Notes: generated by a model not told the origin, from the letters alone. A DNA stretch of 58,324 bases, filler included, from Circinaria calcarea (GCA_051942165.1; 5 parts of 5 records of this genome joined end to end with filler, not necessarily neighbours in it); one strand, 5' to 3'. Counted from the whole stretch's first letter, positions 7,245 to 46,756 are shown. Numbers and translations are program-made.

Positions 7245-10200
7245 ATGGCGATTCCCCAAATACCTCCACGGCCAAGCCGTTCTCAATATCAGCATTCTCT
7301 GGCGTCAACGAGCATGGACGCTCCTAAGATACCTCCACGACCCCAAACCCATCGGCCCTCGGAGCGTTCACAGTCTCCTCACCGAGACAGCTTTGCTCCC
7401 TCGCCCCTCAACGAAGCCCCTTTGACCCCCCATCAGAGTAGCACGAGCAGCGTATATCTCAACAACGGCCGCAACACCTCAGGCTCAAGCTCCAATCTTG
7501 GGCTACCCCAACGCCCTCCGAGTGTATCCCTACCTTCTCTCGGACAAGAAGGTAATGAGTACGCGGATCTGGAACCTCAGGAGCAAGAGAACGCCGGGGA
7601 TGCAACGGAACAGAGCTCTCCGACCCAAACAAGGAATGTAGGAAGTGATCTTCCTTTACATGCGCCTACTCCTTCCTTGGCAACTTCAAGCGCGAAAGCG
7701 AGGATTGCTACCGTGACTCGGACAGACTCTTCGCAGGCTGCGGCTGCAGGCTTTGGAAAATCCGGTCTTCCGACTGTACGTGCAGACGACAAAGATCCAC
7801 ACGCCCGGGATCTTCGGTCGAAGACAAGCTTCGCGCGTAGCGGATCATCCGCGTCCACCGAACGTCCGGCTTCTGCAATTTTAGAGGGTGAACACGGCAT
7901 ACCCGAGATAGGTCAACGTGTCCCTATGCACCCTAATGCTGGAGATGTGCAGGCTCCTTCGCCATCTCCTTTTGTCCAGAGCGGTCCAACTGGAATAGGA
8001 TTTCACAACGACGGGACGCAGAAAGCTGGCAGACATCATGGCCGTACTCGTAGCGGTCGGGAGGTATTCCATGGACCGCCTGGCAGTTACGGATTGCATG
8101 GTCATGGGACTCCGAATAGTGATAAATTTGAAAAGGCTTGGTATGACAAGCACCCGGATGCATTAGCGCGGGAAGAGAGTGGGCAATATGGTCCAGGTAT
8201 TGGAGGTAGCCGCGGTGAATGGGCGCTGAGTAGTGATGATCTGAATAAGATTGTAAGACAAACGGCTACCAGGGGCGCTGGGTTTGGTAAGCACAGACTG
8301 CTTTTGGATGGCGCTGGCGAGAGGCGTCTAATATCCACTAGGTACTTCTCCGAACGTTGCTGGATTACCGAATGAACAAATTGGCTATATGGCTTCGGAA
8401 GAATATGCTTCACGTATGAATTCTCCTCGTCCGCAATCTGCTTCGTACCACAAAAAGGCTCACTCGAACCATTCACAAACACATATGGAGTCACCCCTAC
8501 GAAAGGCAAGTTTTCCTGTTGATATCTCAGGAAAGGAGAACTTTGACAAGTCGAAAGACTCGCATGCAATGGTTCGTCACCAATCCGACAACGCTTTGGA
8601 AAGCGAAACAGAAGATGATGACGTTATCCACATTGACGCCCCTGAAGTCCGTGAAAGCAAGATTGGGAGAAATGGCTACGACGCTCCGACGGAGAATCTT
8701 GGACCTCGCGGTGGCAACACTGAGGCTGAAGGCGGTTGGATCGAAGAGCGTGGATATGGCGTACCGATCCTTGCTTCTGATGAAATTGCAAAAGAACCCG
8801 GCTACGAGTATCTACAACCTGCCGTGTCGCCGGCGCAAGAACGACGTGTTGGTACCTATTACAGTGGAGTTGATTCCGATATGCCATCTTCGTATCAAAG
8901 TGGCTTCCGGCACGGAAGCCACTCTGGAAGTGCTAATAGCAGTCGACCTGGAAGTATACATGGCTCTCTTCCCGGCCTTTCAAGGTTTCTTTCTCATGAT
9001 GATCGTGAAGACATCCATACACCACTTGAGGATGTTGAGGAGTACGAGCCACTGTTTCCAGAAGATGAGAACAAAACCACCAAGCGTCTGAATAGCACAG
9101 CCGACCGGTTTAAGCAGCGACCGGATGTCAAGAGACGATTCCCAAGTCAAGATATATGGGAGGATACACCTAACAGTTTACAATTACAAGCGACCGTATC
9201 AGCTCCTGAACCAGAACCAGAGTCCCTTGTAGATCAATCTGCCAGGCTTTCTAAGACCGCGTCCGCGACATTTGAAGCTCCGGAGAGAGAAGCAGCGAGA
9301 AAAGGGGTGGTGAGCGAAGAGGATAAGGTGAAGTTGATTCCAAAAGAAGAAAGATGGGCTCAATCGAACTTTAAGCCACACCTCCGAGATGAAATGGAGA
9401 GACCTGGTTTGAAGCAGAGATTTCCGAGTAGAGATATCTGGGAAGATAGTCCTGATAGTGCGCGCCTGGAGACGACTGTCGAAGGACCCCAGAGCGATGA
9501 AATACAGAGTCCACAAGATGCAGGTCTCGAGGCCGGTGCCGTAGTGATTACGTCGGGTCGACCTGACGAAGGCAAGATTAGTGGGGAACACCCGAGAGAG
9601 GGAGCGACTGCAGGTGCCCCAGCTATGGAGAAACCATCTATCCCACCACGGCCGGTCAGGTCTAAGCATGTCGATGTTCCCCAAGAATCCGCTTCTCCGG
9701 TGCCTTTACCTATCCCCGCACGGCCTTCACAAAGGCTACACCAAGTCCCTCCGGCGGAAATTCCTCCTTCCAAAACCTTTGACAAATCCCCCCTTTCTGA
9801 GAAACCGGCATCACCAACCAAAACACGAGAAACGCCAGTATTGCCAGCGAGGTCAAAACCTCAAGTCCCGGCTCGACCAACCAAGCCAGCGGCTAGGGAT
9901 TCACCTGATGGTGGAGCCTTATCGAAGACCACATCCGCGACATCGATCGGTTCTAATGATGGTTCTAACGATGCCCCTTCTTCGGTTAATAAAAGCACAA
10001 CTTCTCAGCCACCGGCACCGAAACCTAAACCAGCCATTCCCTCTCGGTCCATTGGTGGGAAGATTGCTGCACTAAAAGCAGGGTTCTTGTCCGATCTAGA
10101 TAAGCGTCTTCAGCTCGGACCTCAAGCGCCTCCCAAACCCCAGGAGAAGGCGTTGGAGCAGGACGAAGGAGGAAAAGCGCCACTTACTGATGCGCGCAAA

Positions 10201-11596: not shown

Positions 11597-11696
11597 NNNN
11601 NNNNNNNNNNNNNNNNNNNNNNNNNNNNNNNNNNNNNNNNTTAATTAATTAANNNNNNNNNNNNNNNNNNNNNNNNNNNNNNNNNNNNNNNNNNNN
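11597..11696. other. Artificial contig linker N44-TTAATTAATTAA-N44
   Basis: 100-nt spacer whose core has stops in all six frames; identical to three other spacers. Confidence 0.98.
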
Positions 11697-23292: not shown

Positions 23293-23392
23293 NNNNNNNN
23301 NNNNNNNNNNNNNNNNNNNNNNNNNNNNNNNNNNNNTTAATTAATTAANNNNNNNNNNNNNNNNNNNNNNNNNNNNNNNNNNNNNNNNNNNN
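23293..23392. other. Artificial contig linker
   Basis: N44-TTAATTAATTAA-N44. Confidence 0.98.
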
Positions 23393-23735: not shown

Positions 23736-24755
23736 AGATTGGGCCTTTCTTGGGAGACCTATCTTATGCTTGAAGCGGTGGACAGTGGCCATGAACAGTT
23801 TGCTGAGATTGTATCTCACGTAAATCAAATTTTTTGCTTACAAACACATTGCGGTGCCGGTTCCTGGTTCTTTATACAACTACAACCCTGCCAAAGACCG
23901 ATTGGCATTGTGGAGGCCACCAGTACTACGTCTACATAGTACGCGTCTTATAACGCTACTCTTTGACTCAATTTAAAAAGGCTCATAAGAAGGAGATCAT
24001 AGCGGAAGCTGCACTCGGAGGTGTAAGAAACGTCTACAAATGGGGTTGGGCCACCGACTCCAATTGCACTATTTTGGAAGATACATACGATCATCTCTGC
24101 TAACCATAGCTTATCCTTTGTATTCTCAAACCAACAAATACCTCTGCCCCTTCACCCTTCACTTTCCCGTTACATCAAATACTATATCTGTCACTATTCG
24201 AGTCTAGCACAGCCACTGATGGTTGAAAATTCTGTGCGAAAGAAAGGGCGGAGAGGGAGATGAGAGGGTAGCTGCAGATGCTTTGGGACTTACCCTGGAG
24301 GAATTTTGGTTGTCCCCGCCGGGGGGGGGGGGGGCTGCTGGGTGACGGTTTCAACAGAGTGAGTCTCGAGTTTCTATCTTATCCCTTCCCAATCGTCTTC
24401 TTTCAATTAATCATCTGTTCTTCCCATATCAGCCTTCTGTGACTTTCTCCTCAATCGCCCTTTCGTTCCTAAAAAGCAAATGCTCTCAGCGAGCATGCGG
24501 CATCTCATGGTCTACGATGATGCACCGCATTGAAGGCAGACAACATGGGCCGTCGAGAGGAAACAAAAGAACCCACCTCGCATACAAAGAGTTTGTTGTT
24601 TACACCAAAAAGCCAGCCTGACACACAAAGAGCCATTGTTGCTCATACAACAATAAGGGTAATCGACATAAAGAATAACAAGACAGTACAATAGCCTTAT
24701 ATAACAAGGGCAGACCACTTCCCTGGGATTCAGATCTTACAGATACCCTAACAAC

Positions 24756-25772
24756 ATGTCGAACGAATCACCGCTAGACCTCACGTTCGGTGTAGAACTC
24801 GAGTTTATCCTCGGGTACCCGAAATCGTACATCAGTCCCGAACTCCGAGCAGCAAATCTGATTCACGACTTCGAAAACGATGAGTGGGCCATAGTTGCCA
24901 CCCAAGTCTACTTGGCTCTAAAAGCCGCCAACATCCGAGTCACAAGCCCCGATCTCACGCTGACCCACTTGGCTAAACAGGACTATAGCAAATGGAGGGT
25001 CATCGACGACAGCAGCATCTACATCCTTGACGAGATACCATCCACCCAACATCAAGGGGTCGAGATCCCCTCCCGCATCCTCGCCGGCAGCACCGCTCAA
25101 AGCCTTGGAGAAAGCTTGGACGAGATCAGGCAGGTCATCTCCGTCCTCACAACCAATCAACCATGGACGATTAGCACTAACGTCTCCACAGGCCTGCACG
25201 TCCACGTTGGCAACAAAACAGCCGGCTTCCCCCACCGGACCCTCACTAACCTCGCTCAGACGCTCTACGCCTTCGAAAATCAGATCCAGTCCATCCACCC
25301 GGACGAGCGCGTCAACCACTACGACTCCTTGTTCTGCAATCCCATGCGCACTTCCTTTCCCCGTGCCAGGGACGATATTGACAACCTGATCGCCATGCAG
25401 GAATGCCCGACCGTCCTTGCCTTGACCAACACGGCTGCTTCCGGGGGCAAGACCGGCGCATACAGCTTTTCTTCCCTCCGGAAAATGGGTACCATTGAGT
25501 TCCGACAGCACCGGGGCACGATGGACGCGGAGGAGATTTGCGCGTGGGTGGAAGTGGTGACGGGGCTGGTGCAGTGGTCTCACAATGCTCCTTCGGGGGT
25601 GTTGCTGCCGCTGGCGGTGTCGGCGCTGGCGACGGACAAGCGGTTCGGGCTGATGGAACTGCTGAGGGTGATTGGGAAGGAGCATCTGGTGAAGTATTAT
25701 CGCGGGAGAGTTTACGAGAGGGAGACGGTTAAGAGGAAGGGGCGAGGGGGTGGGTTTAAATGGACATGGTAA
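24756..25772 (+). CDS. Putative amidoligase (Amidoligase_2 / COOH-NH2 ligase family), intronless
   Basis: TFGVELEF, WRVIDDSSI, GLHVHVG and TIEFRQHRGT motifs. Confidence 0.85.
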   Translation: MSNESPLDLTFGVELEFILGYPKSYISPELRAANLIHDFENDEWAIVATQVYLALKAANIRVTSPDLTLTHLAKQDYSKWRVIDDSSIYILDEIPSTQHQGVEIPSRILAGSTAQSLGESLDEIRQVISVLTTNQPWTISTNVSTGLHVHVGNKTAGFPHRTLTNLAQTLYAFENQIQSIHPDERVNHYDSLFCNPMRTSFPRARDDIDNLIAMQECPTVLALTNTAASGGKTGAYSFSSLRKMGTIEFRQHRGTMDAEEICAWVEVVTGLVQWSHNAPSGVLLPLAVSALATDKRFGLMELLRVIGKEHLVKYYRGRVYERETVKRKGRGGGFKWTW

Positions 25773-26505
25773 TAAGAATAATATTATATATGAGATCGAA
25801 CATTCTGATACTGACCTCAGAAACTGAGTTTGAACAAAATCATGTAACATAATGAACTGAAAATCAAGATCGGGATCCACCGTCAAATAGAACTAATTCT
25901 CAACCATGTGTACAATAGCTGTAGGCGTGCTCCTACAATATACAATGTTCCTCGTAGAATTCCAGAGTTGAGAACGCTTTAACTACCAGGGGGGCAACCG
26001 ATAGGTGCAGGAGGGATATGCCTGTTAAGAGCATAGCACGTTGAGACGACATTCAATATCGCTTTATTAAAAAGCCTATTCTATCTCCCCCTGTGGTAGG
26101 TCACAATGATACCGCAGTCCCGGCCGCGGCATGCTAAAACCCGCCCAAATTCTTTATGAACACATTCGCTAGATCTGTTGAAGATAGGCTCTGTTATTAT
26201 AGAGGTATTATAAACGTATTGTTGAAGGAGAGATTATATAATACATGCCTATAAAAAAGTATTTTGGAGTTGGTGGGAACAGTATTAATAAATCGCTATC
26301 GAGCGAAATCGGATTATCTAAAAATCCTCCGTAATCTCGATTCTCGGTCCGATATATCCGTATTCCGGTTGAAATTAAATTTTATTTCCGCAATACTGCG
26401 CTGATAATTTAATAAAATATTTTTTAAAATTATTAATTATTATTTAATAGCCCAGATAATTTTTTTAGAAAAGGAGAGATTTCAAAGAGAAAAGGCAAAA
26501 ATATA

Positions 26506-26688
26506 GGGCTGACCTGAGGATCGAACTCAGGACCTCTTACACCCAAAGCAAGAATTCTACCTATAGAGAATTTAGTTTGTGGACCATTTAATGCGCAAGC
26601 AGGAGCTCAGACCACTGAACTAGCCTTAAATCATGTTAGCGTCAATTACTCAAGCACGAAATCTTTTCAATTGAACCACGTACCAGCC
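26506..26688 (-). tRNA. tRNA-Pro(UGG) split into 3 exons (26684-26688, 26613-26624, 26506-26560) by two spliceosomal-type introns (26625-26683, 26561-26612)
   Basis: Joined exons GGCTG+GCTAGTTCAGTG+GTAGAATTCTTGCTTTGGGTGTAAGAGGTCCTGAGTTCGATCCTCAGGTCAGCCC fold into a 72-nt cloverleaf; anticodon TGG at 26545-26543, G37, C73; TTTTT terminator 4 nt downstream. Confidence 0.88.
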
Positions 26689-27766
26689 CATATGAATTAG
26701 TTTTAAGATCCTTAATACTATATATATTGTACATTGCCCATACTGTGTAATAGCCAGCACTATGGAAGAATCGGCCCAGTGTATCCTCTGGTCGCAAGCA
26801 TAGTAGACGTTAGTATCGGTTTCTTGCAACAGTCATAGAAGGCCCAAATAATAATTTGATTTCAAAACGAAAGCTGGGATATATATCGGAAAATACCCTC
26901 CATATTACATCTCCTCTTTCTAGAAGTATATACAGCCTTTGTTGAGTATTACGGGATTGATCGAAAGTTGCGCTAACATCTATCATCCATGCGACCATAG
27001 TGCACAAGCTCCATACTAAAAACCGCAAATGTTATGATTGGGTCGCGTGGAGAAGGAACCGGGGAAACAGTTTCAGCCATTCCCCGAGTTTTCTCCCACA
27101 TGTCAAGCACTTTACTACACACCACATATACGCAGCATACCTACAGTTTTTCGTGGCTTTTACTATAGCATTCACCTACACATATATATGACTTTATCGT
27201 GCACTGCATCTGAAGACATAATGCCCTCCCTGTAATGCTCCTCTTTTCTCTTCCAGCCTTATAACAAGTGGTGTACCTCAAATGAGCCACTAAGGTGGAA
27301 ATGGTGCACCTCAAGGCCCGGGGGTATATTATTCGAGTTTACCAGGCTTGTCAACGCCGTGACGTATTGCTTTCCCCTGAATTACCAAGGAGTGCTGATT
27401 CTATGTCTAGCGTGGCCGTGGGTGTTATACCATAGGTAGGGAGGGACTCTACCTCCATTTATTTAGAAGCTCCCGCAAAAAAGCCCCGGTCTCCTCTTTT
27501 TTATACCTAGTTCCTTTACTATACTCTTGCCCCTTACTCCTGCTTTTTATATGCCGTTTCACCCGATTATCACACGACCTTCCACCCATCTCGAGCTAGT
27601 ACCGCTGTTTTGGTCCTCCGTGCTGTTGCTGGCAGTATCCACAACTGGTTACTAGCTCTCTTACTACAGATTCCTAGCCCTGTTGACTCTTTTCCCTTTC
27701 AAATAATCTTGGAAGTCGCTGAAGTCTGAAAACATAAAGTTTCTATCTCTATAATATAAAGCATTT

Positions 27767-28621
27767 CTTCCACAGAAGACCATCGTGATGCATGCTGCCG
27801 AGTTCAATGATTTAGAAGAGAGGATCTACGCCTATTTAAACACGATGGCGGCAGCGGAATTGAACGAATATTCAAGCGAGACGGGTCAATTCCTATCACT
27901 CTGGACTGCGATATTGAGGATGCAGCAGACTTGCTGTGATGTACAGCTCCTTTTAGGAACAGATGTTGCTGAAAGTTTTAATAATCACGCTGCATTTAAA
28001 GGGGAGGAGTTCAAAGTTCCAGTTTTACCGAGGGAGCTTACTAATACACTATCCTCACCCAAAGCTAAAATACCTGGACCCAAAATTCGAGTGCTTGTAA
28101 GTCTTTTAGGAACAGTTCGGTCCAAGGAGCCAGACGCGAGATTTTTGGTGTTTAGTGAATGGACGGGTCTGCTGAGACTTTGCAAGCACCATTTGCAAAA
28201 GGACTACAAGTTATTTCTTTATGAGGGCTCATTGGACACAGGGGAGCGGCAGGAGGCGGTGCAGGCATTCCAAAATGGAAAATACGATGGAATGCTATTA
28301 ACTCTCGGGGCTGGGGGTCAGGGATTGACGCTGACATGTGCTCAGCACGTGTTTATTCTAACACCGTCTTGGAACCCAGGGAAAGAAGCGCAGGCAGAAG
28401 ACCTGACGAATAGGATCGGACAGACGAAACCCGTCGTTGTTCATCGGATTATCCTAAGGGAGCGACGGACATTAATCGAGGGAACGCAGCTGAAATTGAC
28501 CACCGTGGAGGATTATATACTCGCCAAGCAGCAAATGAAGAGATCGTGGGCGGCGGGAGCTGCGGGCACTGCACCATGTGTAGTATTTCTGCATCTGTGG
28601 CAAAGAAGACAGATATGCTAA
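27767..28621 (+). CDS. SNF2-family (Rad5/Rad16-like) helicase C-terminal lobe, 5'-truncated; possibly spliced to the downstream PARG
   Basis: LPQK..., ILRMQQTCC, KIRVLVSLL, FLVFSEWT, GAGGQGLTLTCAQHVFILTPSWNP, QAEDLTNRIGQ, TVEDYIL; in-frame TAA at 27752 upstream and no Walker A/B lobe. Confidence 0.8.
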   Translation, partial: LPQKTIVMHAAEFNDLEERIYAYLNTMAAAELNEYSSETGQFLSLWTAILRMQQTCCDVQLLLGTDVAESFNNHAAFKGEEFKVPVLPRELTNTLSSPKAKIPGPKIRVLVSLLGTVRSKEPDARFLVFSEWTGLLRLCKHHLQKDYKLFLYEGSLDTGERQEAVQAFQNGKYDGMLLTLGAGGQGLTLTCAQHVFILTPSWNPGKEAQAEDLTNRIGQTKPVVVHRIILRERRTLIEGTQLKLTTVEDYILAKQQMKRSWAAGAAGTAPCVVFLHLWQRRQIC

Positions 28622-28636
28622 TATATTATTATCCAG

Positions 28637-29565
28637 CCACTAATCCCTATCATGCCTTCTACCCAGGAATCCATGCCCCAACCGCCCTCGGTTTACGTGC
28701 CGGAGAGACCCTTTCTGGGTTAAGCCATCTGCTGACCTTAAGGAATGAATCATCAATCCAAGAACTTGCTCAGCATTTTACCCTTGGTGCATTGCCTCCC
28801 CTGGATCATACAAGATGTCCCAATTATACAGAAGATGCGCTTGGCCTAGGTCGGAGAGGTACCCTAGTTAAAGTGGTTAAACAAGACACTCTAGATGCCG
28901 CACAGTCTTTATTACGCAAATGGGATAGCTCTCCGCGCGGTCGTTTACCCCCTCGAGGTGATAATGTACTTGTACTCAATATGGCTAACGGTAAGTCACC
29001 TGGTGGTGCGTGGGAACAGGGAAGGATGGCTCAAGAAGAAGAGCTATGCTACCGCTCCTCTCTAAGCCTCACCTTTGATGAAGATTACTACGCATCTCGG
29101 GGCCTCCCCAGCGATGGTGGAGACTACGCGCCTTCGGTTGTTATCATTCGAGAGGCAGCTGCAAGAGGCCACAGCTACTATGATTTCACGAAACCCTTAG
29201 ACAGTGTTGCAGTCGTTTCCGTGGCCGCTGAACGAGATCCCCGCTTGTCTCAACCGTCATCATTGTCATGCCCACGCTATGCTGATTCTATGGCTCGTGA
29301 ATCCATGAAAGCCAAGTGGCGCTCTATTTTGCAGCTGAGTGCTCTGAAGGGACACCGTCGCTTGGTGCTCGGCATGCTGGGCTGCGGTGTTTTCAAAAAT
29401 CCCCCACAAGATGTCGTCGATTGTTTCAAGGAGGTTATGCGTGAGAACCAATTCCGTGGTGGTTGGTGGGAGGAGATTGTTTTTGCTGTATTGGAGAAAC
29501 AAGCATTTGATCGAGGGAACTTCGATATCGCCTACAGGGAGCTACATGGGAGATACTTTGGGTAG
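28637..29565 (+). CDS. Microbial-type poly(ADP-ribose) glycohydrolase macrodomain (TIGR02452/DUF2263-like)
   Basis: DTLDAA, VLNMANGKSPGGAWEQGRMAQEEELCYRSSL, VAVVSVAA, LVLGMLGCGVFKNPP, IVFAVL. Confidence 0.88.
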
Positions 29566-34978: not shown

Positions 34979-35078
34979 NNNNNNNNNNNNNNNNNNNNNN
35001 NNNNNNNNNNNNNNNNNNNNNNTTAATTAATTAANNNNNNNNNNNNNNNNNNNNNNNNNNNNNNNNNNNNNNNNNNNN
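34979..35078. other. Artificial contig linker
   Basis: N44-TTAATTAATTAA-N44. Confidence 0.98.
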
Positions 35079-46656: not shown

Positions 46657-46756
46657 NNNNNNNNNNNNNNNNNNNNNNNNNNNNNNNNNNNNNNNNNNNN
46701 TTAATTAATTAANNNNNNNNNNNNNNNNNNNNNNNNNNNNNNNNNNNNNNNNNNNN
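46657..46756. other. Artificial contig linker
   Basis: N44-TTAATTAATTAA-N44. Confidence 0.98.

Follow-up and report, generated by a model that had tools for sequence, protein, structure and literature searches.

Introns of eukaryotic tRNA genes lie between N37 and N38, and in the passages of a 2023 review on which we draw here their removal by an endonuclease and a ligase is contrasted with splicing by the spliceosome (PMC10275265). Introns at non-canonical positions are described for Crenarchaeota, for Cyanidioschyzon merolae and for nucleomorphs; according to the sections used here, these are mediated by bulge-helix-bulge (BHB) motifs, either strict or relaxed (PMC3978253). A different type of interruption is found in fungal U6 snRNA genes, which carry mRNA-type introns, as many as four in one gene, with canonical signals (PMC5855946, citing Tani and Ohshima 1989, 1991; Canzler et al. 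2016). Spliceosomal introns also reside in U1, U2 and U5 snRNA genes and in ascomycete rRNA genes (PMC5855946, citing Takahashi et al. 1993, 1996; Bhattacharya et al. 2000). In the part of that review consulted here, no tRNA appears on the list of structural RNAs with spliceosomal introns (PMC5855946). A preliminary description of the locus presented below had pointed out that no established case in a tRNA was known. A search of the full-text literature, with most subscription journals outside its coverage, is in agreement with this statement, as it returned no paper that describes a tRNA gene with a spliceosomal intron; nor do the cited portions of the three reviews mention one (PMC5855946, PMC3978253, PMC10275265).

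The DNA analysed here, referred to as the window, is a stretch of 58,324 nucleotides, filler included. On its minus strand, from 26688 to 26506, it holds a tRNA-Pro(UGG) gene in three pieces that are separated by two inserts. This observation is confirmed, and it lies far beyond chance. The exons are 5, 12 and 55 nt and the inserts 59 and 52 nt in length, so that the unspliced precursor comprises 183 nt. All coordinates and strings given in the preliminary description are present in the sequence just as it reported them. In the 5' to 3' direction of the gene, the features of the locus are:

26720..26726, minus strand: TATA-like element (regular-expression match), -38 to -32 relative to tRNA position 1
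26684..26688, minus strand: exon 1, tRNA positions 1-5, 5' strand of the acceptor stem, pairs with 68-72 in exon 3
26625..26683, minus strand: insert 1, 59 nt, donor GTACGT, branch motif GCTAAC with the branch A at 26636, acceptor AAG
26668..26678, minus strand: A-box-like 11-mer within insert 1, starting at +11 of the gene (recognised post hoc)
26613..26624, minus strand: exon 2, 12 nt, tRNA positions 6-18 (end of the acceptor-stem strand, U8, A9, 5' strand of the D stem, D-loop up to G18)
26620..26622, minus strand: competing TAG acceptor within exon 2, the second AG, 16 nt past the branch A of insert 1
26612..26622, minus strand: A box, internal Pol III promoter, now at +67
26561..26612, minus strand: insert 2, 52 nt, donor GTCTGA, branch-like ACTAAA with the branch A at 26572, pyrimidine-rich tail, acceptor TAG
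26506..26560, minus strand: exon 3, 55 nt, from G19 to the discriminator C73, anticodon TGG at 26543-26545
26518..26528, minus strand: B box (T arm), internal Pol III promoter
26497..26501, minus strand: T5 run, candidate Pol III terminator, beginning 4 nt past C73

The inserts thus interrupt the tRNA at positions 5/6, in the acceptor stem, and 18/19, in the D-loop (G18/G19), and not at 37/38, where this tRNA-Pro gene has no intron. Because both junctions lie in G/G contexts, the boundaries of the inserts are ambiguous by one nucleotide in either direction. Three phases lead to the same product, and only the middle one has GT...AG ends. When the 58-kb window was scanned for a T arm with its B box, this element was the sole match. 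Just before tRNA position 1 there is a G on the minus strand (26689) that could pair with the discriminator C73 and so lengthen the precursor's acceptor stem by a pair, which might affect the position of the RNase P cut.

When the exons were joined by their coordinates with a script, ARAGORN recognised the 72-nt product as a tRNA-Pro(tgg) with a full cloverleaf. The details of the cloverleaf that had been put forward earlier are therefore correct, and the in silico spliced 72-mer, the scoring of which had been suggested as a check, is accepted by ARAGORN as tRNA-Pro(tgg). The invariant positions, the UGG anticodon and C73 are present in the joined product, and 21/21 stem pairs are formed. It is necessary to take out both inserts: if insert 2 alone is removed ARAGORN finds nothing, and if insert 1 alone is removed it makes a spurious call. 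Exon 3 by itself is clearly derived from a tRNA. ARAGORN reports nothing for the unspliced locus and 0 genes for the whole window, and Rfam yields 0 matches at the gathering score. A permissive Infernal/Rfam search of 26400-26800 (E up to 10) gave one partial tRNA match and nothing else; at 21.3 bits, compared with a gathering score of 29, this match takes a false D arm from the end of insert 2. The earlier expectation that standard finders would miss the gene has thus been borne out.

A comparison with unsplit genes revealed how closely the exons follow a regular tRNA. A metagenome scan with a degenerate 27-nt pattern of the anticodon-arm region led to five loci, and all five turned out to be unsplit tRNA-Pro(UGG) genes. 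Three of them (L001, L003 and L005) are the same locus from three organisms with 96-97% identity, and we counted them as one lineage. The joined product is identical to the tRNA of this lineage at 60 of 72 positions. Positions 8-48 are the same throughout, right across the junction left by insert 2, and the G6:U67 wobble pair is common to both. All 12 differences fall into the acceptor and T stems and all 12 are compensated, so that each of the six sequences retains 21/21 pairs; one of the compensated pairs, 5:68, links exon 1 with exon 3. On this sequence evidence, the exons appear to behave as those of a live tRNA. Apart from the tRNA itself, no synteny was detected between the window and the metagenome loci. 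In a collection of prokaryote genomes, neither the degenerate anticodon-arm pattern nor the 29-nt stretch at the 3' end of exon 3 had any match, which fits a eukaryotic nuclear tRNA. The two remaining metagenome contigs show local tRNA clusters. On one (L004, 1275-1429), tRNA-Pro(UGG) and tRNA-Pro(AGG) stand in tandem, 9 nt apart; on the other (L002, 654-881), tRNA-Leu(UAA) and tRNA-Pro(UGG) lie on the same strand at a distance of 67 nt.

To what extent such an arrangement could arise fortuitously was assessed with exon 3 held fixed. We enumerated all assemblies of one or two upstream pieces into a valid 5' part, a valid part having a 7-bp acceptor stem, T8, R9, a 4-bp D stem, A14, R15 and G18, with GT...AG ends not demanded. 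Shuffling the upstream sequence produced at least one valid 5' part in 55 of 5000 trials, and 32 of 4888 other stretches of the window did so, i.e. about 1% of cases. The real sequence gives 14 raw solutions, corresponding to 8 distinct products, and a single one of them, the arrangement given in the preliminary description, has GT...AG at both gaps. A second test drew random inserts of the same lengths from the window and asked for GT...AG ends in some phase with equal product together with a score at least as high as observed. This was the case for 14 of 400,000 inserts in place of insert 1 and for 167 of 400,000 in place of insert 2.

Signal scores were calculated from the position frequencies of 2022 introns of Fusarium, as given in the part of the source available to us (PMC5677156). 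As local references we used seven introns, which score 4.7-9.9 bits, a range that is biased upward since these introns were chosen by strict consensus and by a Pfam-supported junction in the Aim21 gene. Insert 1 (G/GTACGT, CTAAC, AAG/G) reaches 6.36 bits. It falls within the local range and into the top 0.18% of the 12,871 GT...AG segments of 45-75 nt in the window. Each base of its extended donor is the commonest or second-commonest one in the Fusarium introns, and CTAAC belongs to the CTRAY branch class, which accounts for 91% there, according to the tabulated frequencies; the AAG end is a minority form, RAG acceptors making up 5.69% (PMC5677156). Five nucleotides inside exon 2 there is a TAG that scores 9.89 bits, as opposed to 6.36 bits for the AAG of insert 1. 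Use of this TAG would delete tRNA positions 6-10 and thereby destroy the tRNA, and it is by the first-AG rule only that the productive acceptor is favoured over it.

Insert 2 (G/GTCTGA, CTAAA, TAG/G) is, by its signals, an atypical and weak intron. With -0.91 bits it ranks in the top 5.5% of the same segments and below all seven local references. Its donor has the consensus base only at -1 (G), at GT and at +5 (G), whereas C at +3 and A at +6 occur in 4% and 14% of the Fusarium introns, respectively; its CTAAA branch falls into the minor CTHAH class of about 4-5%, which is EST-supported in that genus, again on the portion of the source used here (PMC5677156). The claim of the preliminary description that the inserts match the mRNA introns of this genome consequently holds for insert 1 and goes too far for insert 2. 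Its caveats, the AAG end and the weak donor and branch site of insert 2, omitted the competing TAG and the A box at +67.

In their architecture the two inserts agree. The distance from the branch A to the junction is 11 nt in both, and in both the AG that restores the tRNA is the first AG past the branch A. The first AG is likewise used in 7/7 local reference introns, at 6-12 nt from the branch A. With 59 and 52 nt the inserts compare with 55-93 nt in the seven local introns, and the Fusarium introns range from 42 to 529 nt in the part of the study cited (PMC5677156). Other routes to a local intron model gave little. A strict regular expression for fungal introns is not enriched in the window (23 matches versus 24.1 +/- 5.6 in Markov controls), and its matches were not counted as evidence. 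The enumeration of in-frame junctions was mostly ambiguous and had a single yield, the Pfam-supported Aim21 intron at 8287-8341. An unsupervised model built from GT...AG pairs that bridge open reading frames converged on noise and was discarded, a failure due to spurious ORFs such as the 324-aa open frame on the minus strand at 24705-25892. This frame runs antisense to an amidoligase-domain gene, the Pfam match being on the plus strand only, and is, as an ORF within GC-rich coding DNA, probably spurious.

Other classes of insert were considered as well. For neither insert does a BHB motif form more than 2 of the 4 central-helix pairs in any of the three equal-product phases. Self-splicing introns of group I or group II do not fit, as their conserved catalytic core takes up hundreds of nucleotides and the inserts have 52 and 59. 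No intron family was found with Rfam in 26400-26800 at E up to 10. Neither insert has a second copy in the 58-kb window, where the best other matches extend over at most 15 nt (E at least 0.14). A derivation of the inserts from the tRNA or from each other was rejected, because no local alignment reached significance (26, 86 and 78 of 300 shuffles scored as high). Exon 1 plus insert 1 (26625-26688) and exon 2 plus insert 2 (26561-26624) each measure exactly 64 nt on the minus strand, and a global alignment of these two units is suggestive, with 26 of 1000 shuffles as good. That insert 1 arose when exon 2 and insert 2 were duplicated in tandem is nevertheless not supported, since the signal is gone once exon 1 and the shared branch and acceptor ends are left out. 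The trimmed units are matched or surpassed by 1416 of 5000 mononucleotide shuffles, 1310 of 5000 dinucleotide shuffles and 1407 of 4944 random 47-mers from the window.

The surroundings of the locus are an AT-rich gap, in which the short ORFs have no Pfam match. Two 500-nt windows spanning 26001-27000 give a RIP substrate index of 1.22. There is no RIP signature in this value, and decay of the region by RIP was rejected. Elsewhere in the window, Pfam matches include HET, Aim21 and a fungal rhodopsin domain; together with the short introns, they point to a filamentous ascomycete as the host. On the plus strand (27755-29562), two ORFs in different frames overlap, one with a Helicase_C domain only (27755-28618), the other with a PARG catalytic domain of microbial type (28414-29562). 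A truncation or fusion could lie behind this arrangement. The 1 kb upstream of the Helicase_C ORF revealed no SNF2-type N-terminal domain, and the seven short ORFs on the plus strand of the gap contain no remnants of a helicase N-terminal domain. The window also contains four pairs of 44-nt N runs (11597-11696, 23293-23392, 34979-35078 and 46657-46756) with a regular spacing of about 11.7 kb, which look like deliberate masking more than assembly gaps.

The transcription signals have to be viewed in the light of the interrupted structure. The start of Pol III transcription is normally placed from the A box. As insert 2 starts with G, the DNA retains an intact A box, but at +67 rather than at about +8, and its distance to the B box is 52 nt longer. 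A start placed in the usual way would therefore be expected to fall within insert 1, with loss of exon 1. Two elements might keep the start upstream of exon 1. One is the A-box-like 11-mer at +11, near where the A box of the uninterrupted gene would be. It fits a relaxed A-box consensus, and 9 of its 11 bases are those of the gene's own A box; 0.007 such elements are expected per 15-nt placement window, a figure to be read as that of a post hoc find. The other is the TATA-like element, which might rescue the start in a similar manner. In some fungi and plants an upstream TATA box is of functional importance to tRNA genes, and for C. merolae an upstream TATA has been proposed to drive the disrupted tRNA genes, as stated in the cited sections of one review (Soma, PMC3978253). 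Within the 183-nt precursor there is no run of four or more T. This is weak support for Pol III, given that 31% of 183-mers on the same strand of this AT-rich gap, 56% of those in the whole window and 48% of precursors with shuffled inserts are free of T4 runs.

Taking these data together, we consider that the locus is probably a working nuclear tRNA-Pro(UGG) gene of a filamentous ascomycete with two U2-type (GT-AG) spliceosomal introns. There seems to be about an even chance that its tRNA is strictly spliceosome-dependent, in that neither the acceptor stem nor the D arm could form until two U2-type introns had left a probable Pol III transcript. What is observed are the anatomy of the locus, its signals, a conserved tRNA that is restored exactly and the lack of an endonuclease motif; from these we infer transcription, the polymerase, splicing and the splicing order as follows. 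Transcription, most likely by Pol III, would begin upstream of exon 1 at a start set by the TATA-like element, perhaps also by the A-box-like element at +11, and the transcript would end at the T5 run. The spliceosome would then remove both inserts by means of the donor, branch and first-AG signals, with the 5' leader still attached. Exons of 5 and 12 nt appear very short for the spliceosome, and it is their shortness that suggests a leader attached during splicing, and hence splicing before the action of RNase P. The acceptor stem and the D arm would form only after both inserts are gone, to be followed by RNase P, RNase Z, CCA addition and charging by prolyl-tRNA synthetase.

The most serious alternative is that the gene is dead, i.e. 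that two insertions, possibly reverse-spliced introns, put a former tRNA-Pro(UGG) gene out of action, and that the mature tRNA stems from intron-free copies. We consider such a scenario less likely than a working gene. It would account for the weak signals of insert 2 (-0.91 bits), for a stronger TAG that would mis-splice insert 1, for the A box displaced to +67, for relatives that were all found to be unsplit and for the position in an AT-rich gap without recognisable genes. Moreover, a very recent inactivation would leave all of the features intact, and one genome is considered here. On the other hand, the 21 stem pairs and the invariant positions are all intact, and there is no decay of the RIP type. 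GT...AG ends at both inserts are very unlikely for arbitrary insertions (14 and 167 of 400,000, respectively), both restoring AGs obey the first-AG rule at a typical distance, and the precursor has no internal T4 run and a properly placed T5 run. Chance resemblance, namely an isolated 3' fragment of a tRNA with fortuitous matches upstream, has a negligible probability. It is true that most of the tRNA signal resides in exon 3 alone and that exon 1 has only 5 nt, but about 1% of the nulls give a valid 5' part even before GT...AG is demanded at both gaps, and positions 8-19 are identical to those of the unsplit relatives.

If the gene is a working one, the nature of the precursor and of the processing machinery may also be conceived differently. 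Splicing is normally coupled to Pol II, and as a variant nested in the reading of a working spliceosomal gene, the TATA-like element could serve as a Pol II promoter and RNase P together with RNase Z could release the tRNA. The location of this element at -38 to -32 would suit such a transcript, as would an A box that, at +67, presumably lies at too great a distance from exon 1 for a Pol III start to be placed in the usual way, and the usual link of splicing to Pol II is in its favour. We still regard a Pol II precursor as unlikely, because the A and B boxes are intact, the T5 run lies 4 nt past C73, T4 runs are avoided and an A-box-like element is present at +11; furthermore, the U6 snRNA of fission yeast, a product of Pol III, has a spliced mRNA-type intron, as noted in the part of the review used here (PMC5855946). 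Far less probable still is that the inserts are tRNA-type introns cut by the tRNA splicing endonuclease and joined by a ligase. Multiple introns in the D arm and the acceptor stem are known in archaea, C. merolae and nucleomorphs, some of those in nucleomorphs without a defined BHB, according to the passages cited (PMC3978253). The inserts, however, offer at most 2/4 central-helix pairs in the three phases, the eukaryotic enzymes measure to 37/38 in the accounts drawn on here (PMC3978253, PMC10275265), and endonuclease cleavage would leave unexplained the GT...AG ends as well as a branch motif at 11 nt.

While mRNA-type introns in structural RNA genes are known, their extension to a tRNA would be the new part. 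If this tRNA does strictly depend on the spliceosome, it would add a type of tRNA-gene interruption that stands beside endonuclease-type introns, permuted genes and split genes, and it would tie the decoding of proline codons to the activity of the spliceosome. A spliceosome-dependent tRNA would breach the textbook separation of tRNA splicing from the spliceosome, as drawn in the consulted passages of the 2023 review (PMC10275265), and it would add the most abundant class of small RNAs to the list of U6, U1, U2, U5 and rRNA, as that list stands in the part of the review cited (PMC5855946). Since the gene was missed by both ARAGORN and the Rfam tRNA model, genes of this kind would be invisible to standard annotation. 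Counts of tRNA genes in ascomycetes would then be systematically too low, and where tRNA sets of fungi seem to have gaps, these may be artefacts. The questions raised are which polymerase transcribes the gene, how a first exon of 5 nt is held, and in which order the spliceosome and RNase P act.

With regard to the known systems, the locus resembles canonical tRNA introns in that a short insert sits in a nuclear tRNA gene and has to be removed for function. It differs from them in the insertion sites (5/6 and 18/19), in lacking a BHB or an anticodon-intron pairing, and in possessing GT...AG ends plus a branch motif. Like the introns of Crenarchaeota, C. merolae and nucleomorphs, the interruptions can be one or several, affect the D arm, the acceptor stem or other parts, and make standard finders miss the gene; unlike those introns, the inserts failed the BHB test, their signals are spliceosomal and the host is a filamentous ascomycete. 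The introns in U1, U2, U5 and rRNA genes have in common with the present ones that they reside in structural RNAs, among them RNAs that Pol II does not make and RNAs away from the catalytic centre, and that they occur in ascomycetes. The class of RNA is different, however, and so is the polymerase, rRNA being transcribed by Pol I and U1, U2 and U5 by Pol II. The fungal U6 introns share the small non-coding gene, here presumably likewise of Pol III type, the short length, the possibility of several introns per gene, and canonical 5' splice, branch and 3' splice sites, the donor of insert 2 being marginal; the remainder of the U6 introns is unconserved. In contrast to U6, the host tRNA is not part of the spliceosome, so that reverse splicing into RNAs near the catalytic centre, the usual explanation for U6, is not directly applicable. 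The exons of 5 and 12 nt are a further difference from U6, and the inserts break the acceptor stem and the D-loop, which makes the tRNA fold impossible before splicing.
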